A DNA stretch of 64,000 bases from Heptranchias perlo (Eukaryota): NCBI RefSeq assembly GCF_035084215.1, contig NC_090346.1, forward strand, positions 14,322,001-14,386,000. The letters are read 5' to 3'. Numbering within the stretch: the stretch's first letter is position 1; each line of letters begins with the position of its first letter. Made by a program: the position numbers and the translations under genes. Shown here in pieces: positions 34,656 to 62,099 of the stretch. A model generated the notes under the pieces. It was given only the letters and a program-made list of their open reading frames with translations. It did no database searches and was not told where the DNA came from.

Positions 34656-34724
34656 CTAAAAGTTATGGGAAACAAGACAGCCATTAACAAATCCACGTGC
34701 ACGCTCTTCACTGAATGAGGTAAT

Positions 34725-35442: not shown

Positions 35443-35780
35443 TGATGCGGAGGTGCCGGTGATGGACTGGGGTGGACAAATGTAAGGATTCGCACAACAC
35501 CAGGTTATAATCGAACAGCTTTATTTGAAATCACAAGCTTTCGGAGCTTTGCTCCTTCGTCAGGTGACTAAGTATATTCCATATCCAAGCCATTTGCTTT
35601 GTAAGAAAGTTTTTCCTCATGTCACCTTTGGTGCTTTTGCCAATCACCTTAAATCTATGTCCTCTGGTCCTTGACCCTTCCGACAATGGGAACTCACCTG
35701 ACGAAGGAGCAAAGCTCCGAAAGCTTGTGATTTCAAATAAAGCCGTTGGACTATAACCTGGTGTTGTGCGAATCCTTACA
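35443..35780. mobile_element. Penelope-like foldback insertion: two inverted hammerhead-bearing arms around a CR1 fragment
   Basis: 87-bp inverted arms at 35481-35567 and 35694-35780. TSD CAAGTCT[A/G]GACA at 35431-35442 and 35781-35792. Confidence 0.88.
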
Positions 35781-36451: not shown

Positions 36452-36713
36452 CAGTCATGTGGAGCTGCTGCAGCTTGTGATAGACCAGCGCCGCATCTCT
36501 GGTGCTCTTCCACATGTCGTCCTTCAGCTCCTTGTCTCGCCTGAAGCCTCCGGCCCGTGCTGCGAACCAGCGCCCAACCCACAGCCGCTGTAGAATGTGC
36601 CGGATGACGTTCCACATCAGACTACAGGCAAAGTCCAAGTTAGATGTAGGCAGAGGGCGTCCCAATGCCTTCAAACAGGTCCAGAGATTCTGGGAAGCTT
36701 GAGCAAAATCTCC
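36452..36713 (-). CDS. SREBF1: SREBF1 exon 10
   Basis: [49 protein letters not shown]...[16 protein letters not shown]; 262 nt. Confidence 0.96.
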
Positions 36714-36877
36714 CTGACAAAAAAATAAGATCAATGATAAAAACAGAGTGTTATTTTTCCATTCAGACTTCAAAACATTACGTCCCTTTTTAAAAAAGAA
36801 ATCCCCAATTTCCTCTCCTTCGCAACTGAAACCTCTGAATTCCACTGGCGTGCCGTTCCCTCCCAGTGCACATTCTT

Positions 36878-38750: not shown

Positions 38751-39741
38751 TTCTTACCCTCATGCATGACCTGAGACAGCAAGTGTCGGCAGGCTAACGG
38801 TGCATAAATGGCATTGCAGCCAACGTTCCGGCCTCGCTCTGCACCAGCACTCAACTTTTCCAGCATACGAAATTCTGGACTGAGATCAAGAGCAGAAACC
38901 CCAGCTGATTTTCTCTCTATAGACCAGGGGTGCTGAGGCCCACTGTTGTATCTTACAGACCTTTATTTCTGACTGAAACGCAAATTATTTGGCTCAGCAC
39001 TATAAGTCTTAACTGGAATTACTTTACAACGTAGGTCAAATGATTTAGAACCTAAACACCAAGAAAAAGACAGCAAAATAAAAGACTGATCACAATTAAG
39101 TTTGTAACTCTGCATGGGAGATGCCTGTAGAGTCATGGATCAATGGATAGGGAGGCCTTATAACGAAAAGAATAGCATAGTGGGTTTTCTGGATTGCAAT
39201 ACATAGAGAGAAATACATACCATCAGTTTAAGTGCAACATGTCATGCCTTTAATATGCCCACTATTAACTTGTTTTCTCAGACCTGGGTAGAACTATTCT
39301 GTAGGTAAGAGAGATACTAAGGCCATAACTGGGACACATCCAAGCAGAAAAGAACTCCACGTGCAAATCTCGTGCTTCTGGTCTGGCCCGGCCTGGGGTA
39401 AATTAGCTGCTGAAAATTTCTGAAATGGTTCAAGACAGGAATTTGTCACAGAATCAGAAAAGGAAGATACTGCTCGTAGCATTAAGCGATGATAAATTTA
39501 CACCCCAGGAGATGAACCGGGTATGGCCGGGAACTAAATGAAGTAGAGGGGATAGAGCGGATTTCCAAAAATTTCAACCTCGTTCCAGTGAAAAGAAACA
39601 AGTGGAAGGCTCAGGCTTTACATCGCGCGGTGAATGCTAAATCTGTATTTGCCTCAACCCTGTATGTTTAAGCAATTTCACCATAAAAAAGGGGCACATC
39701 AAACCTAAACCTTTTGCTTATCCAGGGTAAATCATCCTTAC

Positions 39742-39923
39742 CCTTGCCAGGTCCAGATCAGCCTGCTTGCGATGCCTCCAAAACAGGACTGATGATTCGG
39801 AGTGCAGCCTAGTGACAGGTTCACCATAAACAAAGATCTTACTAAATACGAGCAGAACAATTATTCCATTAATTAACCAGAGGATCAATGTTGGCCAGAC
39901 CCAAGCAAACCAGCTGGAAGAAT
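39742..39923 (-). CDS. SREBF1: SREBF1 exon 9 (TM2)
   Basis: [60 protein letters not shown]; 182 nt. Confidence 0.95.
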
Positions 39924-42102
39924 CTGTCAGAAAAGAAAAAGAAAAAATATTACCAAATTTTATTTGCTAGGCAGTGGGGTTATTTCCAAGAGCAATATCT
40001 TAAGGTATCACTGAACAAGGGGTCATTCGGCCCATCAGAACAACTTCTGTGACTGACCAACTGTTCTTTAACTCATCGATTTAATCCACCAAGGGAAAAT
40101 CTGCACGAATATTTCCTGATCCCTCAAAGGTTGCTTAACAAAATTCACCCATCCTCACATCTCCACCATTCAATTTGATGCCTGCTGTCCTTCACAGAAA
40201 ACATACCAGCAGCATATGAACCAATGAGTTATGGGGAGTTTAGTCTGCAAATGCAGAAAAACAGACTTTAATCCAACTCCACATAATGTGAAAAGGGAAA
40301 GCTAAAATCAAATATGTTGATTTTTTCACCTCCTTACTGTCATTTTTTAAACTGTTTACAAGGAAATAACAGTGAAGGTGCATAATTAAACACTGATGGA
40401 CATGCAGAGGGAAAGTAGGATGTAATGGAGATGGGGACTCGACTTAAACTGCTGTTGTCAATTACAACATATTGAAAGACTGCACGAAAATTAAAAAGGA
40501 CCTGTCATAGAGGAGGCACTGAGCTGGATGGTGCAAAGATTTAAATTAAAACTAGTTGCGATATAAGCTTTTTTTTCCATGTATAAAGTGGTACCAATTG
40601 CATACCTTCTCTGTTATACAGAAAACACAAATCAAGCCTTTTCTATTAACACTGCAAACAATGAGAGAAACAGTCAAGAGTTTTTAAATTGAAAAGATGA
40701 TACAGTGATGCTAAGCGTTAACGTTCAGTGCCACAGAACAGAGACAGATGCAAACTTACATTGCATCCCAATGAGAATTGAATTGAGTGGACTGTGCCAG
40801 CAGGGAGGTAAGGGAAGACTAGAGAGCAGAGTCATCCCAGGGTACTGTGGCTGAGATCAGGCTGTGTGTCCATCCTCTTAGCTCTTCGCTTCATGCCAAA
40901 CATGAGCAGGAATGTACCCATTACATAGGATTCACTGCACAGAAACAGACCATTTGGCCCAACTGGTCTATGCAGGTGTTAATGCTCCACACGAGCTTCC
41001 TCCCACCCTTCTTCATCTAACCCTATCAGCATAACCTTCTATTCCTTTCTCCCTATATAATGCCATATTAAGTTAAAACTGTTCTGTTTAGTAACTTTCC
41101 CAAGGATACATGAAGTTCTCCACTTCTTTTACTTAATGCCTCCAGGCATAAGTTCCCCTCAGTCCAAAATACCTTCTTTATATCAGTGCTGTATTCATTA
41201 CGGCGTAAGCACGCCAGATCTGGGTTTAATAATCAACCACTTTGGGATCTGGTGCTGTACTCAGATCTCCTAGATGATGCGAAGGAAATTGCCCTGTTCA
41301 CAATGCGGGGACTCAGCTAGAGGAACTCCTCTGCAAAAAACAAATAATTGTTCCTACATCACCTGCAAGATTTCCTTTTTGAAGGGGATTATTATAAAGC
41401 AGGTAAAAAGACTGCAGCTGATGCAGAGTGCACAAAATGATCACTGAGTTTGCACCACCTCCAAACTGGTCTTCAGAGAAAACGTAGTCCAGAGATGGTT
41501 TGCTCAAAGCCACAGCTGATTAATAGTACAGAGTCAGACAGTTTATACTGCCAACTGGAAGTGGGCCTGCAGTAGATATCTCTATCCTCCTATTTCTATA
41601 CTCACTAGCACGTGGCACCGGGAGAAATCCGGAGATTACTACCTTTACTGTTTTTCCGCTCACATTCCTAGCACATCTGGCCTCATATTAGGTTGTTTTC
41701 CCATTTCAATGGAATCTCAGCTGGATATACTTTCAATTCAGAAAGTTTACTTTGTAGGGTGAGGCACTCTAATCATTTTCAGCTTGAATTCCAAATAAAA
41801 CACCACACGCACACGTCACATCTACCATTGATTCAGATACTAGTGTGTTCTCTCAGATATTTGTTAATCATCACATAGAAAGAAAACACATTTGATGAAC
41901 AATGATATTACAAATCAGTGACACATTTCTGAATACAATGCTACCACCAGTTTTTATACCCTTCCCCTTTTCTGGCTGCCCTCTGATACATCATCCGAAT
42001 GGCCATTTTTCACATGCAAACCTAGTCTGGGGCGGTAAATGAACCTTTGGTCTAGATATTTGCATACATTCATTATTTGCTTTTGTTAATTCAGAGACCT
42101 AC

Positions 42103-42304
42103 CTTCAGCAGAAAGCCCTAACATGCTTCTGCCTGCTCCATGGTATTCTCCACCCTCCACAGACCTGCTGATATCCGTCCCACCCATCAATGATGCCAGA
42201 GGGTTAAAGGAGAGGCAAAGGAACACAAAGGTACATAGTACCATCCTGGATCGATCCAACATGCCAATGCTGGTTGGCAGTGTCTGCTCTTGTTTAACGG
42301 ACAC
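42103..42304 (-). CDS. SREBF1: SREBF1 exon 8 (DRSR, TM1, S1P site RSML)
   Basis: [23 protein letters not shown]...GAGRSMLG; 202 nt. Confidence 0.96.
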
Positions 42305-43164
42305 CTAGAGAGTCAACAGGACACTCTGTCAGTTTAAAATGCAAATCAGGTTCATCACTGCACTGAAGCACACTCCCAGGACAGACCATCAAAGCAAAAA
42401 CATAAAGTACAGAACAAGAAAAGGCCTTTCAGCCTATTACGTTTGCACCTTCTACAGTGTATAACCCACACTATCACAGACTCTACTACATCTATTTATA
42501 ATCTCTGGTATAAATAGTCTCCAATTCCCAAATGTTATTAAGCAAATGCCAGAATTATCATTCATCCTCATTATTCAGCCCTGGTCTGCTGGCCTCCATA
42601 GACAACATTCTAAACGCAACCCCCCCGCTACCCCCGCCACTAACCCGCAGCAGCAGAGGAGATGTCGCAAAAAATTAAGAACCATCATGTAGCCAACACC
42701 TGAATGTCGCGTTGAACAAGTCCAAGCTTGTTGGGATTATACTTTTCAGCAGTGCACATACTGTTGCTTAGCTACTAAATTTTAGATCAAAAATATAGTT
42801 TACATTTCATGGCATTTTTTTAAATGAAGCAACATAGTCAGTCTTCTGATAGCCCCTGAATAAACAAATCAAAATGGCCACACAATACAGCATAATGCTC
42901 ACACTGGTCAAATTGAGAAAGCAGAGAATGAGGTCAAATCATGCCATTAAGAAAATTCCCTACTGCAACAGTAGCTACCTATAGGATTCAAATTATTCTC
43001 TATCCACTGAGAGGGAGCAATCGACCTATTCTCAGACCTTCTGCTCTTAAACCAGACCAGGACTGTGAGCAGACACGAACTCCCTCATCCTCCAATTGTC
43101 CTTCTCTTCCCACTGAGAGCCTGGCCAATACTAAGAGTGCACCTCGTGGAGAAAGCAGAAAGGA

Positions 43165-43620
43165 CAAACTTGCATTTATATAGCACCTTTCACATCCCCA
43201 GGAGATCCCAAAGAGCTTCACAGCCAATGGACTACTTCTGAAATGTAGTCACTGTTGTGTGCAGCCAATTTGCTCACTGCAAAGTCGAGAAACATTAATG
43301 AGATAAATCACCAGTTAATTTGCTTTTGATGACTTTGGTTGAGGGATACATGTTGGCCAACACACTGGGAGAACTTCCCTGCTTTTCTCCAAGAAGTGCA
43401 GTGGGATCTTTTACATCCCACCTGAATGGGGAGACAGGGTCTTGGTTTAATATCTCATGCAAGAAAAAAATGGCACCTCCGACAACGTAGCACTCCCTCA
43501 GTACTACATTGAATTGTCAGCCCATGTCTTGGGCAGATTACATGCCCAAGCCCTGCAATGGGGTTTCAACCCATAACCTTCTGACTCAAAGTCCAGAATG
43601 TCACCACTAAGCCAAGCTAA
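43165..43620 (-). mobile_element. tRNA-derived Deu-type SINE, near full length
   Basis: Same core as 12576-12856 plus an L2-like tail (AACTTGCATTTATATAGCACCTTT). Confidence 0.65.
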
Positions 43621-44563
43621 AGCTGTTTTGGGAAACTTAGTGATATAGTGGGTTAAGTGGATGCAACTCTAGCCCCTTTCCCCTTTTCCTAATGATGTGG
43701 GATCAGTGGATTCTGACTGTAAAGACCAGTACAGTACTTAGGATTCTTCAGCAGAAGCTGGGCAAGTTTTGCTCGTGTTAGTTAAGGCACTGAATGGGCT
43801 GCCAGGCGAAGGCAGAACAAAAATACACCAGCTCATTCCAGAAAAGTGACATAAGTTGTGAAGACATCTGCGTCATAAATTCCTACTGACCTCTTGACTG
43901 GAAGAAACACAAAGGCACTGTTTGGCAGGGTAAGAAATCAGAATTTATTTTTTGAAAATAAAGATAGTAATCAATCCACAGGTAGCATTGAGCTAGCTGA
44001 TCTCAGCTGGGGCATTTACAGTAATATAATTGCCCTCTGCCTCTTCAAGCAAAGGAACAGAAAATATCTCAGCCAGATTCCTGCTCCTGATCTCTATCCA
44101 TTAACTCCAGTTGAAAAACTGCCTCATGCATAGGGTTGTGAGAATGTGAAATACACAACCCCAGGAGGTCATACATTCGGTCAAGTGAGGTCTATAAAGA
44201 GGGAGATACTTATTTGGGAAGTAACAGTATTAAGGGACATGGAGAAAAGGTAGCTGCGATGGATAACAAAGTGGTAAAGGAAGGCTCAATGTGCCGAATG
44301 GTCTTCTCCTATTGCTATGTGCTATTCTGGGGGAGGGCAAGATTGGGCTCAGCTTCGATATGCCCTAAGATCAAATATTCTGCCGACACTCACTAGCCAG
44401 GATCACATATAAACAACAACCGCTTGACCAAGGTACTAAAAGGCAATAGCCAACCATGAAATTAGAGTGTGGCAAGCAGTGGAGGAAGAAACATAGTAAA
44501 GTTAAAAAAACACAAAACTAGAAAAGCAGGGGCTAGCAGTCTCCTGACAGCAATCATAAGTAC

Positions 44564-44748
44564 CTTAGTATCACCACAAAATGGGCTGTCTGGCTCGGAA
44601 TCACTGCTGCTCACGGAGAATGGGCTGTTCTGAGGTGGTGAGCCGACATCAGACGGTGGTGGGGTAAACATGTCAGGGTCCTGCTTGAACCCATTCGTTG
44701 TTGCATCCAGACTGATTCCACTGGAAGCCACAATATCTTTCAGAGACT
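44564..44748 (-). CDS. SREBF1: SREBF1 exon 7
   Basis: SLKDIV...FTPPPSDVGSP...SDSEPDSP (Fbw7 degron-type TPPPS); 185 nt. Confidence 0.95.
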
Positions 44749-44978
44749 CTGAAATTGGATAATACTTGATGTAAATGAGATTCGTTCTAACAATAATATC
44801 TAACGCTGAAGTACACAACTACCATTTCAAAACACCATTTCTCAAAGATGTATTCAATGTCTTTTTAAGAACAGAAGGAAAACAGAGCAAAGATTGATAG
44901 TATTACAACTAAAATGTCACTAATCTATATAACATTAAAATTCTTACATCTGCACGCACTTCCTGTCAACTTTTTCTC

Positions 44979-45150
44979 CCATTATAAATTCCTATGTCCA
45001 CATTTATAATGGAAACTGCCTATGTAAACTTGTCACATTGTAATTACACCTTCCTCCCAGTGTCACCACTGGCCAGAGTGTATAATTACTGTGTGACAAG
45101 TTTACATAAACAGTTGCCATTATAAATGCAGACATAGGAATTTACAACGG
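44979..45150. repeat. Imperfect inverted repeat (arms about 70 bp), MITE-like hairpin in SREBF1 intron 6
   Basis: CCATTATAAATTCCTATGTCCACATTTATAATGG...CTTGTCACA pairs with TGTGACAAG...CCATTATAAATGCAGACATAGGAATTTACAACGG. Confidence 0.85.
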
Positions 45151-45856
45151 AAATATAAAAATAAAAGACAAAATGTGTGACTTTAAAAGGGGGACTAAAT
45201 TATGTCTACGTGTCCAGCTCCAATAATCCACCGCTGTCTAACCTTGCTTCACCTGAAGACTACACTTGGCCTTCACACCCAGTGTGCAATGCCACAGGAG
45301 ATTGATTATAATGTAATATCTGCTATGTTGGTAATCTGTAGCGAATGTATTTCAAACAATATACTCAATATGTAAGCATCAAAGTAAAACATGCATCGTT
45401 AAGAAACATTTTCCAATCAAAACCCAATTAAGATCATATTAGTTTTAGTGTCACAAACCACTGATAATTTATGTTTTTAAACCACTACTTAGGTTCCTAA
45501 AGTTTTCTCCCCCTCTTTGGTATAGTTCGGTAAATAGGCAGGCTAGGTGTTCTGAGGCCTCTGTAATTTGCCAATAGGAAGTGTGCAAAAAGAATGCAGG
45601 ATGGCTCACCTGCATATTGTCTCTCCATGCCTTGAGAGATGGGAGGGGGAAGACAACCCGAGACCTGTGAACTCATGTGAGAGGGCACCACGAACACCAA
45701 CCAGTGTGCTACCAGCACGCTCATAGCCCAACTCCCAAACCACAGCAAAATATAAACAGCTTTATATTATTCACACCCATTTGGTACAATAAATTGCTTG
45801 AAATTCCAGTGTCACCCTGTCCCAACAATAATCTGTGTGACAAGCTGAGTACTTAC

Positions 45857-45971
45857 GGTTTTTCTGAGCAGCCATTCTCAACACCATGTTCTCCTGTTTC
45901 AACTTCTGATTGGTTTGTTGTAAGAAGCGGATATAATCAACAGCCTTCTTCAGTATTGCTGACTTGTTCAA
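45857..45971 (-). CDS. SREBF1: SREBF1 exon 6 (helix 2 - zipper)
   Basis: [38 protein letters not shown]; 115 nt. Confidence 0.97.
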
Positions 45972-46902
45972 CTGCCAGGGCAAAGAAAGAAAACAAAAAA
46001 GGTTTTGAAAATATCACAAATTCACATTTACAAATTAAAATTGTGGTTAAGAAGCAGATGGTCTGCGCCTGTCCCACAGCTTCTTGGGATACAAGACTGC
46101 ACCTTCACCATTCAAATGGGGAGGGTCTGATTCCGTTACAAGGTGATGTGCTTCCCTTCAAGGAAGGAAAACTTGGAGAAAGTGTTGGCCCAGACTATTA
46201 TTGTGCACCTACTGCCTACAGATAGTTACTGAGTAGCATCAGTTGAGAAGTAGCTAGGGATTGCCTGCTTGCCTTATGCCTCCTTCAATCATGGCTGGGT
46301 GGAGAAGAGAAGGTACAAAGAGGTTAAAGAAAGGAGCTAAAGGTTTTTTTTTGTTTTTGCATTTTACTAGTTTCCCCCTCCCTTCCTAAGGTCACACTAG
46401 TGTCCAGTTCCATAAGCGTCATCAACCCCCTGGTACTTCACGCAAGTGGCCATTCTTAATACACAAGGCTCGACAGCAAAAGCCAGCAAGCTATTTGACA
46501 ACAGGGTGCTTCATAGCTGAGCCAGACCTCGTCCGCAACGGACATACAAACGTGCATTTTTCCGGCATGGATCACAGGATAGTGATTAGAAATGGGAATG
46601 CTGGCTTGTCTTTCCACTCTCTAACCCAGGGATGCCACAACTCATTGGAGCATCTCCACTGTAGCCCAGCTGCGATCAGCAAACGCCACACAGACCAGAG
46701 ATCTGAATTAGAATGTAGTGGTTGGCATGGTTCAGAGTCACCACACCAGACAATGCATTTATCCAACAAGGCATCGGGAAACTGTTTCTTAAAAAAAAAG
46801 TAGACAAAACGACCATTTAACCAACTACGAACATGTGATTAATGCATCTATTAATCCAGTTAGTTGACAGATTCTTAGCTTAGCTTAGTAAGAGTATTTT
46901 AC

Positions 46903-47121
46903 CTTGCCTTCAGTGCCAATAACAAGGTCTTTCAGCTCCACAATCTTGTCATTGATGGATGACCTGTAACGTTTCTCAATAGCGTTATGCGCCGTGCGTT
47001 TCTCTCCCTTGTTTGGTGCGTTGCAAGGTCTGCCGCTTGCTGGCATACGATTGATGGGAAGTTTGTCTGCATCTACCATCAAAGGGATTGTGGTCAAAAA
47101 TGTGTTTCCACTGACCAGCGC
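46903..47121 (-). CDS. SREBF1: SREBF1 exon 5 (basic region - helix 1)
   Basis: [29 protein letters not shown] with the SREBP-specific Tyr; 219 nt. Confidence 0.98.
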
Positions 47122-48460
47122 CTGGAGAATATAAATTTATAAAGAAACTCAGGGCAGATTCCTACAATAATGAGAACAAATTTACACTAGATATTTAATC
47201 ATTAACTTTTTAAAACAAAATAAAATCAATATAACGTCAGCTTTTATTAGACTGCAAACCACTTAATACATTACACAGTACTACAGTCATTGTTCCTCTG
47301 AACTTTCCTCACTTGTATGGATCCTAGATGACTCAGCAAGTGTATGGAATGGAGTAGCTGTGCGCAGAAACCAGGAAGGTACAGGTTTAATTCCTAGTCT
47401 CCATAAAGTTAGCCGATCTCAGCTAGGGCAGCATTAGGGGTGCTAGAATTGACCTCGGCATCCCTGGGTTGGTGGGAGGGGAAATAAGTCTGCCAAGATA
47501 TCTACTCTCGATTGCTATCTGCGACCTCTGCTGGCAATGCATGTGGGCTTAGGATAGGATCGGGCTTGGATGTGATGTACCCGAGTTGAATAGCCTGCTA
47601 AACCTGACTCGTGGATAATGACCACTTCAGAAGCGGGAAGAAATTGATCAAGAAAAAGATATATAGATTATATAAATAAAAACCCTTTGCCTCCTTGTTC
47701 CTCCTATACTCTAAATACACCATTGTGACCGTGTTGAAATCAATTTCAACTTTTGGTAGTGTGCTGCACTATGAACTATGCAGCTGGGTTACTGCTTTCC
47801 TTGACGAGAGGCCAGACTATCTCACGGTCAGAAAAACTAGCAAGAAATGACTGGCTTTCTTCTCCCCGTTGTGTACTTTTTTTTTAAAAGGAATGTTCAG
47901 TTGTGATTTGTTGGCATTTGTACAAAGTGCGACATCCGAATTACGAACACTCTCAAAACTATCACTACTGTATATACACAAATTTGTCACACTTGCATTA
48001 ATTGGCTCAAATTTTGCATGCATAAAATGGTAACAAATCAGAAATAACGCACTTTGATATGGATTTAAATGTGCAATCATGCAGGACTCCTCCCACTGCC
48101 ACTGCACCATCAAATCATAGCCTTTTGCTAAATTGTACAGCATTACTTTCATCTGCAGACAGTAGAAAATCTCCTCAACTAACAGAATGCCAGAACAGTA
48201 ATTTCAAGAACAATTATCTAGTCTCCTGCCACAAATTAGCAATGACAAATACTTGGAAGTGAATTGAAGCCAGTAATCTTATTTTAATCTTCTGAAGCAT
48301 TTAAAGTGCTTGAGATTCATTCTGTCGTTTATCATTTTGCTTGGAATAATTTGAAGGGATTAGTGGCTTTCAATTCCTCTACTTTAACAAGATCTACCAA
48401 CACCACCAGTTTCTCCCAATCAATGTAATATAATGATAATGACAACTGTAGTCTACCTAC

Positions 48461-48616
48461 CGGCATTTGCAGGGATGTGGTTTGAATGGGAGTAGTGGTA
48501 GTTGCCAGAGTTGATATCGTAGGAGACTTTACTGATGTCACAACAGTACTTCCGTCCGGCTTCAGAGCTGTCAGAAGCAACGAGTCAGCCTTAATGAACT
48601 GAGGCTGGAAAAGTAG
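48461..48616 (-). CDS. SREBF1: SREBF1 exon 4
   Basis: LLFQPQFIKADSLLLTALKPDG...QMP; 156 nt. Confidence 0.95.
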
Positions 48617-49932
48617 CTGCAGAAGAATACAGATACAAAATCAAGACCAACCACATTTTTATATTTCTGTTCGATTGGTTCACCACTTCCCTTCATCGCA
48701 ACATTTTCTCTGGGCTGTGTTCTATGATCGATGACATGTCAGGCAAGCAGTTCCAAACTTCATGAGGGAATTGTGGAAAAATGCTCCAAGGTTTTCAGGA
48801 TTTTTTTGGCACATTTTCTCCCCTCCCCGTCTCCTGAAGGCATTTGCTCTTGCTGATGTTGGATTCCATAAGCCTTGGATGTCTTCCTGTACGTTTCGAA
48901 TGGCCAGTCTTCATGTGTGAACCTAGACAGTGAGTGTCAGCAGGCTATTTGACCAGGGGGAGGGGCATGACTTGATCCAGTCTTCAATCAATCAACGTCC
49001 ACACACTGGATGGCGATCAAGAGTGAGAAATTTTGCTGATTTCTTTTCCTCCCTTGCAGGGACACGCGAGCTAATTATAATCCCCCTACTATTGCGCTGG
49101 CTGAGATGAGCTACTTCAGATCTTCCTATTCTATATGGTCCAGTTCCCCGTGACAAACCAAAGGTCCTCAGTTGCTTATAGTCAGATTTCAACTTGGCAT
49201 GACAACAGACAAACAGCTGTACAAATCATTCACTGAACATGTATTCAAAGTACTCTCAGATCTATAGCTTGTTGCAAAAAGCTTAGTTTTTCCTGAAGCT
49301 ACTGTAGTTTGATTATTGAATTATGACTGAACTGATCAAAATGTGAATTATGGCCGAACAGCTTTTACTCTTGGATTTAATACCATCAATCCACAGTTTA
49401 TTATTTCATTCACTTGCTACCTTTGTAGCTGTGACTCAATTCACAATCCAACTTTTACACAATATTCCTTTCAGCACTTCCAGCAAATTCACAAAAGATA
49501 AACTGTCAGCTACTCCTAGAACCAGGCCCTGTGCCAGTGTGTCCTTATCCCACTCTGCCGACTCCCTATCTGGAACTGAATCGTGTACTCAAATAATTAC
49601 TTACAACAAAAGTGCCAGGATAGGGGGATCATGCTCCTGAAGTACTCCCAATGTCAACTAAACTGCAGTACAGAGTGGAGGTGACATACCTCTCCAAAAA
49701 ACAGAAGGGTGGGGGAAGAGAGAAACTAGTGAAGTGGCCAACACTCAGAAATTCAGTGATAACTTGTAAGGCTTGAGTGTTCAAACAAGGCTAAACCTGC
49801 AAATGTAATTTTCAACTTTAAATTCTTTGCATTTGTTGTACAAGTCAGAAATCAGAACCTGGGTTCTGAAACATCCACCTCTTCCCCCTGCCCCCCTCAG
49901 GTTTATCTTTCCCAACAAGTGAAGTTACTTAC

Positions 49933-50102
49933 CGGTAGCTGCTGGATTTGTGCCGAGACAGACTGAGTAGAACTAGCTGTCGCAGTAGTCAAAAGGTGCT
50001 GGGCAGAAATATTCTGGACCTGGGCTTGAATGGTCATGGGCTGCATCGGCTGAGGAACTGCCAGGCTCTGGAGCTGCTGGGTAGCCACCCCCTGTGGTAG
50101 TG
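49933..50102 (-). CDS. SREBF1: SREBF1 exon 3
   Basis: LPQGVATQQLQSL...VSAQIQQLP; tag/gtaagt; 170 nt; bridges phase 1 to phase 0. Confidence 0.85.
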
Positions 50103-50177
50103 CTACACCAAGTAAAAACCAAAGGAAAATGAATAGTCAATTTAAGATACTTTACTGGAGGCAAAATGACTTAATTA

Positions 50178-50765
50178 GGTGTCAGCCATGGCTCAGTAGT
50201 AGCACTCTCGCCTGTGAGTCAGAAGATCACGGGTTCAAGCCCCACTCGCGGCTTCAGCACATAACTTCAGAACAGTAATGAGGGAGTGCTGCATTGTTAG
50301 AAGTGATGCCTTTCACAGGAGACGTTAAACCGTGGCCCTGTCTGCCCTCTCAGACGGACATGAAAAATCCCATGTTATTATTCAAAGAGATGGGGAGTTC
50401 TCCCAGTGTCCCAGCCAACATTAATCCCTCAACCACCATTAGTAGGAACATAGGAACAGGAGCAGGCCATTCAGCCCCTCGAGCCTGCTCTGCCATTTGA
50501 TAAGATCATGGCTGATCTGTGATCTAACTCCACATACCTGCCTTTGGCCCATATCCCTTAATACCTTTGGTTGCAAAAAGCTATCAATCTCAGATTGAAA
50601 ATTAGCAATTGAGCTAGCATCAATTGCCCTTTGCGGAAGAGTTCCAAACTTCTACCAACCTTTGTGGAAGTAGAAAGAGATTATCACACTGCTGTTTGTG
50701 GGACCTTGCTGTGCCCAAATTGGTTGCCGTGTTTCCCTACATTACAATGATGACTACACTTCAAA
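50178..50765 (+). mobile_element. Deu-type SINE interrupted by an antisense CR1 3' end (about 50441-50665)
   Basis: tRNA-like head GGCTCAGTAGTAG...GGGTTCAAGCCCC; the SINE resumes after the insert. Confidence 0.65.
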
Positions 50766-51364
50766 ATGGCCCACAGTTCTAGGGCGAAGGAGAGATGAAA
50801 AACATTTTTTGTAATGATTCCCCATTATTTCGGAGTTAGGGAGTGAGTTGATCCACCCAACAAACACTTGCATAGTTGGCAAGGAAGCTCTTCCTTGGTT
50901 GATCCACTAGGAGACACCCCTGTACAGTAGAAGCACCTCATTCAATCTTTATTCGGATGACTTGCGCAAGAGAAGTTAGGAGAATTCTTTTTACACAGAG
51001 GGTTGTTACAATATGGAACGCCCTACCAAAAACACTACTGCAAGCTAAATCCACAACAGCTTCTGAAGAAGAAAAGGTTAAAAAGGTAGGCGAATGGAAC
51101 TAAATGGAAAGCTCTTTCAGAGGGCTGGTACAGGCACAACGGCCTCAAGAGCCTCTTTTTGTGCTGTAAGATGCTATGATTCTATGCTGAAACTCACCTT
51201 CTCTAAGGGAAAATCAGGGTATAAGCATCAAACCATTGGGATTTGAACTTGAATTTTCCAAGTCTAATAGTACCAGAATATTTTCAAGTGGCCTGAACTC
51301 AGAAGCAAGTCCTGGAAATTGGACCAGTGGACTTTCATCACTGATATTTTTTTTTTAAAACGTC

Positions 51365-54300
51365 AAATAGGGAAGGAAAGAAAGGAGGGGGGGGGTGGCA
51401 GTATTGATCAAAGAAACTACTGTAGCACTGAAAAGGGACGATGTAGTTGAGGGGTCAAGGACAGAATCTATTTGGTTAGAATTAAAGAACAACAGAGGAG
51501 CTATTACGCTACTCAGTGTATACTATAGGCCACCAAATAATGGGCACAAGTAGTGCACAAGATAAGAGCTCATGGTGTTGGGGGGGTAACATACTGGCAT
51601 GGATAGAGGATTGGTTAATTAACAGAAAACAAAGAGTCGGGATAAGAGGGTCATTTTCAAAATGGCAATCTGTAACTAGTGGGGTGCCGCAGGGATCAGT
51701 GCTGGGGCCTCAACTATTTCCAAATAAATCAGTGACTTGGATGAAGGATCAGAGTGTCTTGTGGCCAAATTTGCTGATGATACAAAGATAGGTAGAAAAG
51801 CAAGTTACGATGAGGACACAAAGTGTCTGCAAAGGGATATTGACATGTTAAGCGAATGGGCAAAAATTTGGCAGATGGATTATAATGTGGGAAAATGTGT
51901 TGTCATCCACTTTGGGAGGAAAAATTAAAAAAGCAAAATATTATTTGAATGGAGAAATACTACAAAATGCTGCGGTACAGAGGGATCTGGGTGTCCTCGT
52001 ACATGAAACACTAAAAGTCAACATACAGGTGCAGCAGGTAATCCAGAAGGCAAACGAAATATTGGCCTTTATTTCTAGGGGGATGGAGTATAAAAGCAGA
52101 GAAGTTATGCTACAACTGTACAGGGTGCTGGTGAGACCACACCTGGAGTACTGCGTACAGTTCTGGTGCCCTTAAATACTTGCATTGGAGGCAGTTCAGA
52201 GAAGGTTCACTAGGTTGATTCCGGGTATGGAAGGGTTGTCTTATGAGGAAAGATTGAACAGGTTGGGTCAATACTCATTGGAGTTTAGAAGAATGAGAGG
52301 AGATATTGAAACATACAAAATTCTAAGGGGACTCGATTGGGTAGATGCTGAGAGGATGTTACCCCTCATGGGGGAATCTAAAACTAGGGGGCATAGTCTC
52401 AGAATAAGGAGTCGCCCGTTTACGACAGAAATGAGAAGGAATTTCTTCTCCCAGAGGGTCGTGAATCTTTGAAATTCTTTACCCCAAAAAGCTGTGGAGG
52501 CTGAGTCAATGAATACATTCAAGGCTGAGTTAGACAAATTTTTGATCAGCAAGGGAGTCAAAGGATATGGGGAAAAGGCGGGAAAGTGGAGTTGAGGTAA
52601 AAATCAGATCTGCCATGATCTCACTGAATGGCAGAGCAGGCTCGAGGGGCCGAATGGCCTACTCCTGCTCCTATCTCTTATGGTCTTATGGGAAGGAGAT
52701 GGAGGAACAAATTTGCAGAATATATATGCAAGAACTACATAGTGATAATGGGGGGACTTCAATTATCCCAATATAGACTGGGACAGTAACAGTGTAAAGG
52801 GCAAAGAGGAGGAGGAATTCCTGAAATGTGTACAAGAGAACTTTCTTGATCAGTGTGTTTCCAGCTCAACGAAAAAGGAAGCAGTGATCATAATACCATC
52901 AGGTTTAGAACAGTTATGGAAAAGGAACAATCAAGCATAAAAATACTTAACTGGAGATGGGCTAATTTCAGTTAGCTAAAAAGGGATCTTGCCCAGGCGG
53001 ATTGGAATTAAAAATTGGTAGGCGAACAGTAATTGAACAATGGGAGGCCTTCAAGAAGGAGACGGTTTGGGTACAGAGTAGACACATTCCCATGAGGGGG
53101 AAAGGAAGGGCATCCAAAGCTAGAGCTCCCTGAATAACTAATGGTATAGAGATTAAAATGAAACAGAAAAAGGAGGCTTATGACAAATGTAAGGTTCATA
53201 ATACAGTAGAGAACCAAGCTGAATACAGAAAGTTCAGAGGAGATCTAATAAAGGAAATAAGAGGGCCAAAGAGGGAGTATGAGAATAGATTAGCAGCTAA
53301 CATAAAATAGTTAAAGGGTAGTCAAAGGGTAGGGCCAATTAAGGACAAAAAAGGAGATTTTCTTGTGGAGGCAGAGGGTATGGCTAGGTACTAAATGAAT
53401 ACTTCGCATCAGTCTTCACTAGAGAAGAGGATGCTGCCATTGTAGCAGTAAAAGAGGTAGTAGCGATTCTAAAAATAGATAGAGGAGGTACTTAAAAGGT
53501 TCGCAGTACTCAAAATGTCACCTGGTCCAGGTGGGATGCATCCTAGATTACTGAGGGAAGGGTGGAAGCTGTGGCCACAATCCTCCTTAGATATGGGGGC
53601 GGTGCCAGAGGACTGGAGGATTGCAAACGTTACACCCCTGTTCAAAAAAGGGGAGAGGGATAACCCGGCAATTACAGGCTAATCAGCCTAACATCGGTGG
53701 TGGGAAAACTTTTAGAAGCAATAATCCGGGACAAAATTAATTAGTACTTGAAAAAGTATGGCCATTGAATGAAAGTCAGCACGGATTTGTTAAAGGAAAA
53801 TTGTGTTTGACTAATTTGATTGAGTTCTTTGATGAAGTAATGGGGAGGGTTGATGAGGGTAGTGCGGTTGATGTGTATATGGACTTTCAAAAGGCATGAT
53901 AAAGTACCACATAATAGACTTGTTAGCAAAATTGAAGCGTGGAAACAAAATTGGCTAAGGGACAGAAAGCAGAGAGTAGTGGTGAACGGTTGTTTTTCAG
54001 ACTGGAGGGAAGTATACAGCGGTGTTCCCCAGGGGTCGGTAATAGGACCACTGCTCTTTTTGATATATATTAATAACCTGGACTTGGGTATAATTTCAAA
54101 GTTTGCAGATGACATGAAACTCAGAAATGTAGTGAACAATGTGGAGGATAGTAACAAACTTCAGGAGGATATAGACAGACTAGTGAAATGGGCAGACACA
54201 TGACAGTTGAAATTTAAACGCAGAGAAGTGTGAAGTGATACATTTTGGTAGGAAGAATGAGGAGAGGCAATATAAACTAAATGGTATAATTTTAAAGGGA

Positions 54301-55005
54301 GTTTAGGAACAGATAGACTTGGAGGTGTATGTGCACAAATCTTTGAAGGTGACAGGACAAGTTGAGAAGGCTGTTAAAAAAGCATATGGGATCCTTGGCT
54401 TTATTAATAGGCATCGAGTACAAAAGCAAGGAAGTTGTGCTAAACCTTTATAAAACATTGATTAGGCCTCAGCTGGAGTATTGTGTTCAATTCTGGGCAC
54501 CACACTTTTGGAAGGATGTCAAGGCCTTAGAGAGGGTGCAGAGGAGATTTACTAGAATGGTACCACGGATGAGGGACTTCAATTATGAGGAGAGACTGGA
54601 GTTGTTCTCCTTAGAACAGAAAAGGTTAAGAGGAGATTTGATAGAAGTGTTCAAAATCATGAATGGTTTTGATAGATTAAATAAGGAGAAACTGTTTCCA
54701 GTGGCAGAAGGGTCGGTAACCAGAGGACACAGATTTAAGGTGACTGGCAAAAGAACCAGAGGCGGCATGAGGAAACATTTTTTTTTTTGCAGCAAGTTGT
54801 TATGATCTGCAATGCACTGCCTGAAAGGATGGTGGAAGCAGATTCAATAGTAACTTTCAAAGGGGAATTGGATAAATACTTGAAGGGAAAAAATTCAAAG
54901 GACTATGGGGAACGAGCAGGGGAATGGGACTAATTGGATAGCTCTTTCAAAGAGCCGGCAAAGGCACAATGGGCCAGATGGCCTCCTCCTGTGCTGTATC
55001 ATACT
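51365..55005 (+). mobile_element. Degenerate CR1 LINE ORF2 with a second CR1 nested at 51545-52687
   Basis: Host has APE remnants (VYYRPP, GDFNYPNIDW) and RT remnants (SGVPQGSVIGP, KFADD, RPQLEYCVQFW). The nested copy has its own GVPQGSVLGP/FADD and 3' tail. ATGGG lies at both junctions. Confidence 0.9.
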
Positions 55006-55579
55006 GTAAAAGAAAAGATTTACATTTTCTTTCAAACACCTTTCAACAACATGGTGACTTTCCTTTTCAAAAGACATAAAGAATCATGTGTGTTCTGCAA
55101 ATAAATGTGGCTTTAGGAAAGCCAATATTTATTTAACAAGGTTTTGTGGGGTGAAAAGCACAGCTATAGATTGAAATCAGCAATAGTGGGTTGGTCAATC
55201 ATGGGGAGTTACAAACACTGCAAGGTTTGTGCCAGGCAATGTAATTATGCAATAAGTTCTGACTCAAACAGGTTCTTTTTATTTGCATGCATTTGGATTT
55301 TTCAGTGGTCTCAGACAGTTTAACCTTGTCAAAAATAAATCTTTCACTGATAAATTTTTCTATTCCATTGCACTATTTACCTAGTTTAAAAAAAACTTTG
55401 TACATTCGGGCATTGGTCCTCAACCCTTAGTAGACTAGTCCCACTCTGACAAGTCTGGCCCTCAACCAAGGCCTGTTGCAAATTGTAAAGTGGTGAATTT
55501 CTCTGAATGTCTTTTACGCTGCCAGGTTCTGAAATGCTGCCGAACTATACAAGTCTGAATCTTAAAAAGCTTCAAGGCA

Positions 55580-55915
55580 TAGACAGAATCACACAACACA
55601 GAAAGTGACCATTCGGACCATCGTGCCTGTGCCGGCTCCTTGAAAGAGCTATCCAATTAGTCCCCTGCTCTTTCCCCGTAGCCCTGAAAATTTTTCCCCT
55701 TCAAGTATTTATCCAATTCTCTTTTGAAAGTTACTCTTGAATCTGCTACCACCACCTTTTCAGGCAATGCATTCCAGATCATAACTCGCTGTGTTTAAAA
55801 AAAACAATTCTCCATCTCCCCATTGGTTTTTTTGCCAATTATCTTAAATTTATGTCCTCAAGTTACAGACCCTCCTACCAGTGGAAACAGTTTCTCCTTA
55901 TTTAATCTATCAAGT
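55580..55915 (-). mobile_element. CR1-type LINE 3' fragment
   Basis: Reverse-complement homologue of 54670-55000. Confidence 0.75.
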
Positions 55916-57484
55916 AGGATAAACTTAAAGGGGAGGGAAAGCGTATGAAACAGGGCCTTTCTGCATAAATGTGCCCTGGTTGTTAATCTGGGTGCCTTTA
56001 ATCAGGAGCACTGATTGCTTCCCAGTGATAGATGGCATCATGACATCACCGAATGAAATGGGCCCTCTCCCAGCATTAAAAATTTAACTTGTACAAATTA
56101 TGTTTTTTTCCTTAAAGGAATGAAGACTAACAATAATAACGGGATACATATGTGGGAAAGTACCCATTTTCTACCCGTTCTTTCCAATTTAAGTTAGCTA
56201 GATTCTGAAAGTAGTAGCTGGTAACCATCCATAGTGCCCTCTTTTTCTCCTTCCCACTCAACCCCCTCCCCTCATGTCTAGGGAGGATTCAGATGTTACC
56301 CCCACCACCACCAACAGCACATTCCACCTCTTCCCTTCCTGCAGCTTAAAATTCACACAGCACAATAGTTTTATTCCCATTTTCAAAATAATTCTGCTCA
56401 AGTAAAATGACAAACGAAAGATTTCACTGAGCCAGTGCTATATTGAAACAAAAAAGCAGTACGTTCAATACATCAGCAACAGATCCTCCCACACCAAGAC
56501 CATTCCTAATAAGAAATTATTTTTGTTCAGCAACACTGCAACTAATAGCCTACATTACTCAACAGTCTACAATTAATGCATGCCGGTATTACTGAAACAC
56601 CGATCTTAATCTCGCTAGGATGCATCTCACTCTGAAAATTTGTAGTTAATATTTAGCCATAATTTTCTAATCTAATTTAAGCTGCTTTTACATTGTCTTT
56701 AGAAGACTGCTCCTGCTGCCGATTCTGGACACGCTGGACTTGCATATGCGGTGGCACCTGGTGTAAACCTACCAATTCAGTGAGACACAGGCTGCCAAGT
56801 AAAAAAAACAGGTCTTCCCAGCAGTCACATTTAATCAACGTGACACATTTACATTGGAATCGCTGCTGGGTGCATGAGTCCCACACATCAGGAACTGACC
56901 ACGCAAGTACCTCTCTAAAGTCAAACAGCTTTAAGGAAATACAAAACACACCAGTCAAAGCATTCAACTCAAGTAATGCTCCCATGGCTCAGTTGGTAAG
57001 CACACTTGCTCACTGTGAAGTGGAGCCCATAAGAACGGGAAGGTCTCAGATTCAATCAGCAGTCTTCAGTGATCACAGATACAGCGGAGGCAGGGGTGCT
57101 ACAGTCGGCCTCAGCAGCGCTAGGTGATGGTGCGGTTAAAAAAAACAATCCTGTAGTGGTTATGCTTCTGATGGCAACCCTGTTAGAAAGGGGGCATGTG
57201 TAAATGGAAACAAGCTCCTGCTGTGACTTCCCTCACTGTCAAACAGCCTGGCATGCACTGCCAAAGCTCATGTGTGAACAATGCAAAACTGAGTTTCTGA
57301 CACTGGAGCCCCTCAGTGAGTGTTGCAAATTGCAGTGCCTGGAGTGGCAGAATACTGGTACTGCAAAACTTATTAAAATTACATTCTGTCAGTAATAGTC
57401 CTCAGACCAATGGAATTTTCAAACTCATCCAGTTCATTAAATTATTATACCTTTTGGAGAATCCTTGATGCCTCAGTTGGGGGT

Positions 57485-57955
57485 CACAGAATTTTATAGC
57501 AGAAAACAGCGCATCGCACCTGTGCCGGCTCTCACTTGGTCCTATTCCCCAACCCTTTCCCTATACCATTTTTAATTTTTCTTCTTCAAATAATGACCCA
57601 CTTCCCTTTTAAAAGCTATACCAGATTCTGCTCCTACCATTGTTTCTGGTTGGGCAACTATTTAAGAAAAATTCTGCTATATTCTCCCTTCATTCATTAG
57701 ATAATCTTAAATTTACCAACTCACCGAGCAGTGAAAATAGTTTTCCCTGATTTATCCTCAGATCTCCTCTTAACCGTCTTTGTTCTAATGAATAGAGCCC
57801 TAGTTTCTCTAATCCCCTCATAACTAAAGCCTCTCATCCCTGGGATGACCCGAATGAATCTCTTCTGCACCCTTGTCACGACCTTGACATCCTTCCTAAA
57901 GTAAGGCGTCCAAAGCAGGACACAGTATTTTAACTGCTGCCTAACTAATGATTCA
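57485..57955 (-). mobile_element. Old CR1-type LINE 3' fragment
   Basis: Diverged match to the other CR1 3' ends (CTTCTGCACCCT...ACATCCTTCCTAAAGT). Confidence 0.6.
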
Positions 57956-57974
57956 TGTAGGTTTAACCTTAACT

Positions 57975-58335
57975 CTTTGGTAAGTGCACTGCTTACTGTG
58001 CAAGTGAACTGTACAGACCCTGATCTGTTCTGAGTTAATTGATGTCAGTAGGGGGCAGTATAACTGCTCTTGGACTAGGGAGGTGGTAAAAAGAAATAGG
58101 AAAATCAGTCTCATTTTCCACTGCTGATCACAAGTGGCCGACGCTGGAAAGCTCACATAGGGGGCATAAGGCCAGGAAAGATCAGACTCAGCTGTAATGT
58201 CCCCCATAACTGAATACCCTGCCAACAGGCACTGTCTAAGCTCAGAGATGAAGAATGACCATTTGGCCACCATACTGGAAGGTAGCATATACCCATGGAA
58301 CTGTACCCCAGAACAATTCAGTGCCTTCAGGAGAG
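57975..58335 (+). mobile_element. Dispersed old SINE-like repeat (core CTGTGCTGAGTTAGCTGATCTCAG); further copies near 18750, 22820, 25560, 26560, 30710, 31690, 47320
   Basis: The diverged motif series recurs at least 8 times in the window, with a tRNA-like head in some copies. Family not identified. Confidence 0.55.
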
Positions 58336-58762
58336 GAAGGAAGAAAATAAGAAGGAAAATATAAGTTACTATACTTTGCAATTCTGTACTGCTCTTTATT
58401 ACACCCAGTATCTAAAACAAGTAGCAGGACATCTTTACTTAACCAACACTTCTTGCCTCTTCGCACCCAAGAACCATCTATCTGAAACTGAATGCTTGCT
58501 TTTTAATTCACGCTAACTGCACATCAGATAAGAAATAGCAAATGTTAGTGAGGTCCCAGTTTATAAGTATCAAAGTACTATGTCCAAAGTTTATCATGGG
58601 TTATTGTACCTTGAAATAGGATTAGGATAGTGAGGAAAAACACACATTTATCAACATACAAAGACAATTGATCAGATTTGTATTTAACTGTCTTTACACG
58701 AAGTCCCAAACCATAAAAAAAAATAACTTTTGTTCAATACTATTCTAATGATAATCAATTAC

Positions 58763-59185
58763 CCGTAAATCCATTGGAATTCTGATAGCCCAGCAATGGC
58801 GGCTGCTGCTGTTGTTGTTGTTGTTGTTGTTGCTGCTGCACAAACTGTGGCTGTGATTGTGGGGAGGCTGTAAAACTCTGCGACATCATGAGAGGCTGCT
58901 GCTGTTGGCCCTGTTGCATCTGAGCAGTCTCTTGCTCGACATGTTGTGGAGAGGGGGCCTGAAGCTGCTGTTGTTGCTGCGGTTGAAGTAGAGGCCCCTG
59001 GTACATTTTAACAGGGGTTTGCGTCTTAACGCTAGTCCCCAAGAGGCTGTCGAGGGACAAGTTCAGCGAGCCCTGGTTAGACAGGGCACGTGAACTGCTT
59101 TCCTGAAGAGGAGTGCTAGCACCAAAATGGTTGTCAAATAACCCAGGGAACTCTCCATCCTGGTTGTTAATCAGCTGCAGCATAT
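58763..59185 (-). CDS. SREBF1: SREBF1 exon 2
   Basis: tacag|(D)MLQLINNQDGEFPGLFD... followed by a Gln/Pro-rich region; 423 nt; phase 1 at both ends. Confidence 0.95.
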
Positions 59186-59898
59186 CTGTAAATCAAGCAG
59201 AACATAAATGGTATGACTATAAAAATAAGTTTCTACCTCTACATACTGTGCATGGCAAAAAAAAAGATGCTGATGGGACAGTTATCATAAACACATGACT
59301 GCATTTACTCTGCCCTAATACAGATGTGCGCCACTAAAATAAATGAGTAAACCTAGAGTTGCCGACACAATGTTGATGATTGCAGTTCAAAAGTAATGAA
59401 TTAATTGTGATGTGTCTTGGGATACCCTGAGGCTGTGATAAGGTGCTATATAAATGCAGGTAGCTTCTGTTAATTTGAACCTATATTAGAAAAAATCAAA
59501 ATCTTTATAAATTTAGAATTAAAACAGGGCAGCTCTTCGACGCAATCAAACCCAATTACCCAAACCTAAACAGAGAATACCATCTCCATTACTCGTACTA
59601 ACTCCATGGCTCCCATGTATTTTGGATTATTGCCAATGTATTTCAGATCTTAAATAAGTATTAATTTACTATGCAACTACAAGCAAACAGCATAAATATT
59701 AAGCCTTGCATTTTCAAAATAAAGTTAATTATATTTTTGATTCCATTCAGTCCTACATACTACAACTGAAATAAAAACCATCTAAAATCAAATACAGCAC
59801 TCTTGTAAAATATGCCAAGGGAATAGAAACTAACCCAGTTTTAAAAATAACATTTTTCAAAAATATTATCCTGCATAAGTTAAAGTATAGTCATACAA

Positions 59899-59914
59899 AG
59901 GTTACTTTAGGTCA
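59899..59914 (+). promoter_or_regulatory. DR4 / LXR response element just downstream of exon 1c
   Basis: AGGTTA-CTTT-AGGTCA. Confidence 0.75.
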
Positions 59915-59968
59915 TTTGCACCAAAACACTTCAATCGTTACAGTAAAACTACAATATAACAGTATTAC

Positions 59969-59987
59969 CTTCAAATGTGCAGTCCAT
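59969..59987 (-). CDS. SREBF1: SREBF1 alternative first exon, SREBP-1c type (MDCTFE|D)
   Basis: ATG GAC TGC ACA TTT GAA G|gtaat. Phase 1 joins exon 2 to give MDCTFEDMLQLINNQD, the mammalian SREBP-1c N-terminus. Confidence 0.9.
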
Positions 59988-60211
59988 TGGCGCACCTTAT
60001 CTGTGCAAAACTTCACACAAGGTTTATGTTGCTACACTAACAGCAATATTTTCAGTCATGCACAAGAACACTTTAGGATCTTATCTGCTTAGCCTTTCGG
60101 AACAGTGCATGTACAAAACCATAGAGCAATAAGGAAACAGCACCGCTTTTCTCCTTGCCTCCTCCCACTCCCATTTTAGAAAAAAAAATCCACCGACTGT
60201 ATTCAAATTGA

Positions 60212-60279
60212 GGGGCGGATTTCGGAATCTTTTTTTTCATGAGGTGATCTGGTTGAACCAATCACTGCAGTCCCCCAAT
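60212..60279 (-). promoter_or_regulatory. 1c proximal promoter module: GC box, SRE-like site, two CCAAT boxes
   Basis: GGGGCGG 60212-60218; ATCACCTCAT (minus) 60239-60248; CCAAT 60258-60262 and 60275-60279. Confidence 0.65.
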
Positions 60280-60381
60280 CGCTCGCTATGTTTGGCTTAC
60301 CACTCAGACATGACAGAAAGGATTTGTTTAACAGTCTACACCGTCAGGGGCGCTGATTAATTCAGAAAGGTGAATAACCGG

Positions 60382-60397
60382 AGGTTACTATCGGACA
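60382..60397 (+). promoter_or_regulatory. DR4 / LXRE candidate upstream of exon 1c
   Basis: AGGTTA-CTAT-CGGACA. Confidence 0.65.
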
Positions 60398-60719
60398 TCT
60401 GATCCCAAAGCTCATTCTATCACAGCTACCAGCCTTCAAACTACACTCGAGACATTTAAAATTATAATCTAATGCTACGACATAATTTCAGTTTCGGAAA
60501 ATTAAAGATTTGTTTTATTTTTTTAAAAAGTACCATTTAAAATATTGAAACATCCGAACATTTCGTGTTTTAAAAATATCAGAAACGGCTCCACAGGGTT
60601 ATAAATTACAAAAAAGGAGCCCCTTTTACGCAGCTAAAGGTTTTCTACATATGTTGTACGTGTCTGAGAATAGATGAGTGTGCAGATGAACTTAAGAATT
60701 CCCCAGCAGCTGAAGGCAA

Positions 60720-60735
60720 TAACCGCTAGTAACCC
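60720..60735 (-). promoter_or_regulatory. DR4 / LXRE candidate upstream of exon 1c
   Basis: GGGTTA-CTAG-CGGTTA on the minus strand; resembles mammalian SREBP-1c LXREs (GGGTTACT.GCGG...). Confidence 0.7.
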
Positions 60736-61797
60736 TGGCGTGTCGTCACTGCCTGAGAGGCTGAAAGGGGTTTGGTCCAAACTGAGCACACAATTCAGCA
60801 ACTGCAACCTTGCCAGAGCTACACAGTGCCAATGCTACTGGGCACCAGGGAAAACAGCACACTCACTCTCCACTTCTAAAAAAAGATACATATAAAGTCA
60901 AAAGATTTGATATATATATTAATTAAATTTAAATATAAACAATTTTCCTGCTTTGCAATACCCCATAGCAATTAAAGATGGATTTCGGTTCTAAATATTA
61001 CATTTTGGTAAACTTTATTTTTTATGTCATTGCTTAAAAAATACATTTCATTTCAAACTGAGTACTACAAAATCATTCAAAATGTATAGAACTTTTAATA
61101 ATAAGGGTAGCCCGCCAAGCAATATCTATTTAAAAACACATCAGCAAATGGGTGAAGCTACTCTAACATGAGTACTGACGCGGGATATGCAAGAGTCATT
61201 TACAATTGTATATAAATACATGTGATTTTAAATAATGTATATTTATTTTTAAATGTACCACAACGCTGGTAAGTAAAATAAAATTATACATATATAAATA
61301 TGCACTTACACACAAATCATGTAAGTAAAAGGAATATAACATTTTAATTTATGCATATTAGCAGAATTGTACCAGCACTCTTAATTTTTAAACCAGTGAA
61401 AAGCAAATGCTTTCAATTGTTTTGCTAAGCGATTCCACACATTCCTAATTCTACCCACGAATATTCATGCCCGTCAGACTCGACTGAGGCCTGCCCATGC
61501 CCATTAGGCAATGGCCACAGATGCCAGGCTCCAGAGATGCCCATGCTAGCCAGGCACAAGCTAGCCTTGGATGCTTCGAAAAGCTCGTTAGGCAGTGCCC
61601 ATTTCTACCAGGCAATGCCCACAGGTGCCAGCCAATACCTATATACCTGCCAGACTATGCCCATAGATGCCTTGTAATGCCCATATGTGCGAGACCCTGC
61701 CCCCTCTTTCATGGCTCCTGCCCTCTCCCCCACCCCCTCTCATGGGTCCTGCCTTCTCCCCCCCCCCCCCCCTCCATGGGTCCTGCCCATCACTCAC

Positions 61798-61888
61798 CAT
61801 CAATGTCACTGAGCAGCGCGTTATCGATCTCGCTGCTCTCCGTCAGAGACGGGTCCAGATTGTCCAGGGACGACTCCTCGAATATCAT
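61798..61888 (-). CDS. SREBF1: SREBF1 exon 1a (acidic activation domain)
   Basis: gccATG-IFEESSLDNLDPSLTESSEIDNALLSDID|gtgagt; 91 nt, phase 1. In-frame upstream ATGs exist at 61930 and 61969. Confidence 0.92.
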
Positions 61889-62099
61889 GGCCGGGCCAGA
61901 GGATCGGTGCGGCTGCCCACCGTTATTCATCTTAAATGGTATCACTGTACCGAATCCAGGCGGCAGCATGAGGGGGGGGGGGGGGTATGGGGGGCAAAAT
62001 TGGCCCCCGGGGGAGGGGGGGATTCCGTGTTTACACAGAGCTCACTCGCCTCAGCACCATGTCAATAAACGGCAGCACAAGCCTAACTTGCTACCGACA

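Follow-up and report, generated by a model that had tools for sequence, protein, structure and literature searches.

A probable SREBP-1c-type first exon with upstream LXRE-like sequences in SREBF1 of the shark Heptranchias perlo

In mammals, SREBP-1c is activated by LXR/RXR through LXREs (passages of PMC11156753), SREBP feeds forward through an SRE (passages of PMC2582599), and SREBP-1c predominates in liver and adipose tissue (passages of PMC11641310). According to passages of PMC6113258 and PMC2582599, the mouse promoter carries LXRE1 (−234/−218) and LXRE2 (−184/−168), followed by NF-Y, E-box, SRE3 and Sp1 sites. In fish, a single 1a-like SREBP-1 is the only form characterised according to passages of PMC5220380; those of bioRxiv 10.1101/751032 likewise give teleosts a single Srebp1, and those of PMC3113789 state that nothing points to alternative isoforms in salmon. 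All three statements concern teleosts. The label srebp-1c has been applied to trout without isoform evidence in the passages of PMC7048274, and neither these nor the passages of PMC3305589 on chicken and of PMC11156753 settle whether a non-mammalian 1c exists.

For cartilaginous fishes, passages of PMC5381633 report that T0901317 and oxysterols elicit a response from both skate receptors, LXRa and LXRb, and make no mention of SREBP. Since both receptors are ligand-responsive, the trans-acting side of LXR control is present in this group. We found no description of a chondrichthyan or turtle 1c in the largely open-access literature searched.

The SREBF1 gene and its two first exons

We analysed a 64,000-nucleotide stretch of Heptranchias perlo DNA, referred to here as the window. 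Comparison by tblastn with ten named chondrichthyan SREBF1 proteins gave 77-85% identity over 16-19 segments, the individual proteins yielding 18-19 segments each and the truncated Heterodontus isoform 16. The bHLH exon matches Pfam HLH, and the predicted protein is nested within the elasmobranchs (100/99) in a 19-row tree that does not include SREBF2. In the same tree its nearest relative is the sawshark Pristiophorus (88%), and its position lies outside the batoid and galeomorph clades, a placement that makes the wording "apparent shark" in the preliminary description reasonable. From its similarity and placement, the window gene is an elasmobranch SREBF1 orthologue. The coordinates of the gene, of its first exons and of the neighbouring features are collected in Table 1.

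Table 1. Features located in the window (positions within the 64,000 nt).
Feature	Position	Strand	Remarks
SREBF1, whole gene	18450..61930	-	19 coding segments by tblastn
Exon 1a, coding part	61798..61930	-	133 nt, phase 1; 10 of its 45 residues up to the junction acidic
Alternative first exon 1c, coding part	59969..59987	-	19 nt, phase 1; MDCTFE and first base of an Asp codon, followed by a GT donor (59968)
Exon 2	58763..59185	-	common to both first exons; acceptor before 59185
Distal DR4, LXRE-like	60720..60735	-	GGGTTACTAGCGGTTA; 2 mismatches to mouse SREBF1c LXRE primer core
Proximal DR4, LXRE-like	60382..60397	+	AGGTTACTATCGGACA; 103 nt upstream of first CCAAT; 4 mismatches to mouse LXRE
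Two inverted CCAAT boxes, candidate NF-Y sites	60258..60279	-	60279-60275 and 60262-60258
SRE-like site	60239..60248	-	ATCACCTCAT; 2 mismatches to the SRE quoted in passages of PMC2582599
GC box, candidate Sp1 site	60213..60218	-	
Putative 5' UTR / start region of 1c	59988..60212	-	four upstream ATGs; possible acceptor before 60000
Intronic DR4	59899..59914	+	AGGTTACTTTAGGTCA; follows exon 1c; one mismatch against ideal DR4
Local CpG-retention peak	60301..60750	.	over the DR4 region
Exon 1a promoter	62409-62106	-	exact classical SRE 62341-62332; CCAAT boxes 62313 and 62210; several GC boxes; CpG-rich stretch
In-frame ATGs of exon 1a	61930 and 61888	-	
Polyglutamine run	58830-58800	-	in exon 2; CAA/CAG-encoded
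mir-33 hairpin	22375-22439	-	Rfam RF00667, 71.4 bits; SREBF1 intron 16 by tblastn segment count
Histone H2B gene	63588-63959	+	Pfam Histone
Open frame	3805-9420	+	1871 codons; convergent with SREBF1
Tandem-repeat-like tract	about 800-3500		near window start

Within intron 1, between exon 1a and exon 2, lies a second candidate first exon that starts with an ATG at 59987 and contributes 19 coding nucleotides. The preliminary description had proposed such an exon in the form MDCTFE-G followed by gt, in phase with exon 2; its coordinates hold, and the "G" is a single nucleotide, the first base of an Asp codon. Exons 1a and 1c both end in phase 1, and each joins exon 2 at 59185 without creating a stop. 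The in-frame product of exon 1c and exon 2 is MDCTFEDMLQLINNQD, which is identical to the start of named mammalian isoforms and bears out the earlier assignment of an SREBP-1c-type first exon to shark SREBF1. Up to the junction, the 1c form has 7 residues, 3 of them acidic (MDCTFED), versus 45 residues and 10 acidic ones in the 1a form.

In 2000 dinucleotide-shuffled versions of the 2612-nt intron 1, the exon pattern given in the preliminary description never arose, and a post hoc estimate from base composition puts the expectation of such a mini-exon in an intron of this length at 4e-7; together these values exclude chance as its origin. Exon 1c is almost certainly a real spliced first exon, and its peptide and junction indicate that it is the orthologue of the mammalian SREBP-1c first exon.

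Several further features were observed in and around the gene. Exon 1a contains two in-frame ATGs; the second (61888) aligns roughly with the start of the turtle and bird proteins. Starting at the first lengthens the protein by about 14 residues, which are present in other elasmobranchs too. The mir-33 hairpin occupies the same intron as in rabbitfish srebp1, where passages of PMC5027541 place it in intron 16. The histone H2B gene lies on the opposite strand, some 1.6 kb past the start codon of exon 1a, and adjoins a LINE-like fragment; it is possibly an orphan copy. The long open frame at the other end of the window, which we take to be RAI1/TCF20-like, would fit the known neighbourhood of SREBF1; the 156 residues scanned gave no Pfam match, and synteny was therefore set aside as an argument.

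Distribution of the 1c-type N-terminus

Three protein searches returned 89 distinct proteins, each the single representative of its cluster; the 88 with names entered the counts, and one without a name did not. Among the chondrichthyan proteins 4 of 11 begin with the peptide, among those of turtles 3 of 27 and among those of mammals 11 of 28; none of the 20 bird, 1 crocodile and 1 caecilian proteins does. These ratios are not comparable between groups, as a query beginning with the peptide was used to retrieve the mammalian proteins. Conservation in other chondrichthyans, a check proposed in the preliminary description, is therefore seen in the four representatives Pristiophorus japonicus X2, Hypanus sabinus X3, Rhinoraja longicauda X2 and XP_007903954.1. 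In these models the same peptide is joined to exon 2, with the variant MDCIFED in Rhinoraja. The last of them falls outside the elasmobranchs in the 19-row tree; judging by its accession range, we take it to be Callorhinchus milii, a probable chimaera. The turtle isoforms (Macrochelys, Pelodiscus and Pelusios; P0051, P0063 and P0065), which come from both major turtle lineages, begin with MECTFED, have the same length and junction, and differ in the replacement of Asp2 by Glu.

Because the same peptide and the same junction recur in cartilaginous fishes, turtles and mammals, the 1c isoform is very probably ancestral to jawed vertebrates, in agreement with the age first proposed for the exon. 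The preliminary description had added that an existing annotation of 1c in sharks would remove the novelty, and this applies in part: the exon 1c N-terminus is already present in automated models of sawshark, skate, stingray and a probable chimaera; their displayed names, some of them truncated, give only "isoform X2" or "isoform X3" and bear no 1c label.

The groups without a match do not lend themselves to a reading as losses. We considered taking the lack of teleost, amphibian and bird matches as loss of 1c and rejected it, the search being incomplete: it missed three turtle 1c-type proteins that share 10-15 query words, though it picked up matches with 11-12 words. Teleosts and frogs are absent from the 88 named proteins, the product of that incomplete retrieval. 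The counts of 0/20 in birds, 0/1 in the crocodile and 0/1 in the caecilian were likewise set aside as a sign of loss, given that each cluster is represented once and that 24 of the 27 turtle proteins are negative too.

The protein models also bear on whether the 19-nt segment serves chiefly as an internal exon that follows either exon 1a, yielding a 1a+1c hybrid, or some non-coding exon. The peptide is contained in 27 of the 28 mammalian representatives and lies internally, behind a longer N-terminus, in 16 of them, and the shark sequence has a possible acceptor before 60000; one of ten AG positions tested (first base 59995) would keep a fusion from exon 1a through to exon 2 open. Against this, the other nine, including the best-looking one at 60000, introduce a stop into the 1a fusion, and all four chondrichthyan and all three turtle models that bear the peptide begin with it. 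Use mainly as an internal exon is thus improbable next to use as a first exon.

The upstream region and its DR4 sequences

Along the direction of transcription, the elements are arranged as DR4, DR4, two CCAAT boxes, SRE-like site, GC box, the ATG at 59987 and a third DR4 in the intron. The SRE-like site, CCAAT boxes and GC box announced in the preliminary description were all located, at 60279-60213 (-). Its three DR4s around the exon are also at their positions, but the one at 59899 lies 55-70 nt inside the intron that follows exon 1c and is not part of the promoter, which leaves two upstream; these are 323 nt apart on opposite strands. No E-box (CANNTG) is present in 60200-60300.

The SRE-like site has two mismatches to the classical SRE; of the 49 window sites with no more than two, 44 likewise have two. 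Only two of these 49 have both a CCAAT box and a GC box close by; one precedes exon 1a, the other exon 1c. The CpG observed/expected ratio reaches 1.13 at 60451-60750, the highest value for any 300-nt interval of the 64 kb (median 0.33), with about 10 CpGs in AT-rich DNA; at 60301-60600 it is 1.08, and the 1a promoter ranks next after the peak interval of the 1c region. In the exon 1a promoter, the exact SRE suggests that sterol feedback may act on 1a too; the mammalian 1a promoter is mainly Sp1-driven.

The 226 nt that separate the GC box from the 1c ATG contain four upstream ATGs (60174-60059, -), which open frames of 33, 13, 9 and 11 codons that all close before the main ATG and may reflect uORF control or a spliced 5' UTR. 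As these ATGs could hinder translation, we considered whether the segment is a silent relic or a chance look-alike, no longer transcribed in this species. The perfect peptide and the intact ATG, phase, donor and motifs after long divergence speak against such decay, and we regard it as highly improbable.

To judge the DR4s, two kinds of reference were used. The first is the ideal DR4, the consensus AGGTCA-N4-AGGTCA. The intronic DR4 departs from it by one mismatch and is one of two such sites in the 64 kb. The proximal DR4 has three mismatches, a level matched by 55 sites in the window, and the distal DR4 falls outside those 55. We therefore did not retain this generic scan as support for the two upstream DR4s: it fails to single them out, and only the intronic one stands out.

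The second kind of reference consists of published LXREs: the core of a mouse SREBF1c LXRE primer, GGGTTACTGGCGGTCA, printed in the available passages of PMC13022077, and the GLUT4 LXRE from those of PMC2844827. Both were found by a text search with a heptamer that comes from the window itself, which favours a match; the label of the mouse primer as SREBF1c LXRE was given by its authors and is independent of that search. The distal DR4 is identical to the mouse core at 14 of 16 positions, is its best match in the 64 kb, and was equalled in 1 of 2000 shuffles. All three DR4s, the proximal one included, are among the eight window sites with at most four mismatches to the mouse LXRE; the intronic one has four, and three to the GLUT4 LXRE. 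Intron 1 holds three such sites versus a shuffle mean of 0.089, a number reached in 0 of 2000 shuffles, or in 9 of 2000 when either template is allowed. The two upstream DR4s thus stand out only against a real LXRE, not against the ideal consensus. All three start with GGTTACT, as do both published LXREs. Judged by their letters, there are two LXRE-type DR4 sequences upstream of exon 1c, and the intronic third one may be an additional LXRE, a site undescribed for the mouse promoter in the literature consulted.

A candidate LXR-responsive promoter and its meaning

Compared with mammalian SREBP-1c, the shark locus has the same exon position between 1a and exon 2, the same N-terminus (MDCTFEDMLQLINNQD), the same order of promoter elements and one LXRE identical at 14 of 16 positions. 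Exon 1c with a promoter of its own is probably the shark orthologue of the mammalian arrangement. It is not a copy of the mouse promoter: in the mouse, according to the passages cited above, the LXREs are about 50 nt apart, in contrast to the wide spacing and opposite strands of the shark upstream DR4s, and the mammalian promoter has an E-box inside the SRE complex that the corresponding shark interval does not. The shark region also differs in its two CCAAT boxes, the extra intronic DR4 and the 226 nt separating the GC box from the start codon, which carry four upstream ATGs and a possible acceptor at 60000.

By the mammalian precedent, transcription would start downstream of the GC box, and exon 1c would be spliced to exon 2 with exon 1a skipped. 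Replacing the 45-residue N-terminus and its 10 acidic residues by one of 7 with 3 would make the product a weaker activator; mammalian 1c is reportedly the weaker form, as the title of a 1997 paper by Shimano has it. Oxysterol-bound LXR/RXR on the DR4s would turn on the 1c promoter, and mature SREBP on the SRE, together with NF-Y and Sp1, would feed forward. From the sites found, 1c is quite probably LXR-responsive through at least one DR4. A liver-dominant lipogenic role like that in mammals is, by analogy, only slightly favoured; none of the present observations connects the exon with shark liver oil, much of which is squalene, ether lipid or dietary lipid and offers no specific pointer to 1c.

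The main alternative accepts the exon and assigns the DR4s elsewhere. Thyroid-hormone receptor and CAR both use DR4 sites, and the DR4s could serve one of these, or act as an intron-1 enhancer on the 1a promoter so that LXR would raise total SREBF1 rather than 1c in particular. The spacing and orientation unlike those of the mouse and the intronic location of the best consensus DR4 are consistent with this. In addition, passages of PMC9385821 report that srebp-1 is inducible by an LXR agonist in salmon cells, though salmon reportedly has no alternative isoform (passages of PMC3113789), so LXR control need not run through 1c. On the other side, the GGTTACT start is common to all three DR4s, and two of them lie directly upstream of the CCAAT/SRE/GC cluster, as in the mouse. 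We consider it unlikely that the DR4s serve a different receptor or the 1a promoter, and LXR control of 1c remains the preferred reading.

In mammals, LXR and insulin act on fat synthesis mainly through SREBP-1c, whose promoter is induced by insulin as well as by LXR/RXR ligands and is repressed by PUFA. With the same micro-exon in mammals, turtles and cartilaginous fishes, the split between 1a and 1c goes back to the ancestor of jawed vertebrates, and we lean toward the view that the whole LXR-to-SREBP-1c feed-forward circuit, with its cis-elements, was already wired in that ancestor. What this adds is an age and an interpretation for a known system; automated gene models already contain the exon. 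A dated split turns the teleost state into a question of loss or oversight: if the circuit is that old, the "single 1a-like SREBP-1 of fish" would mean either that teleosts lost the 1c form or that their 19-nt exon has been overlooked, and the response of teleost srebp1 to LXR would be expected to trace to the homologous module in intron 1.
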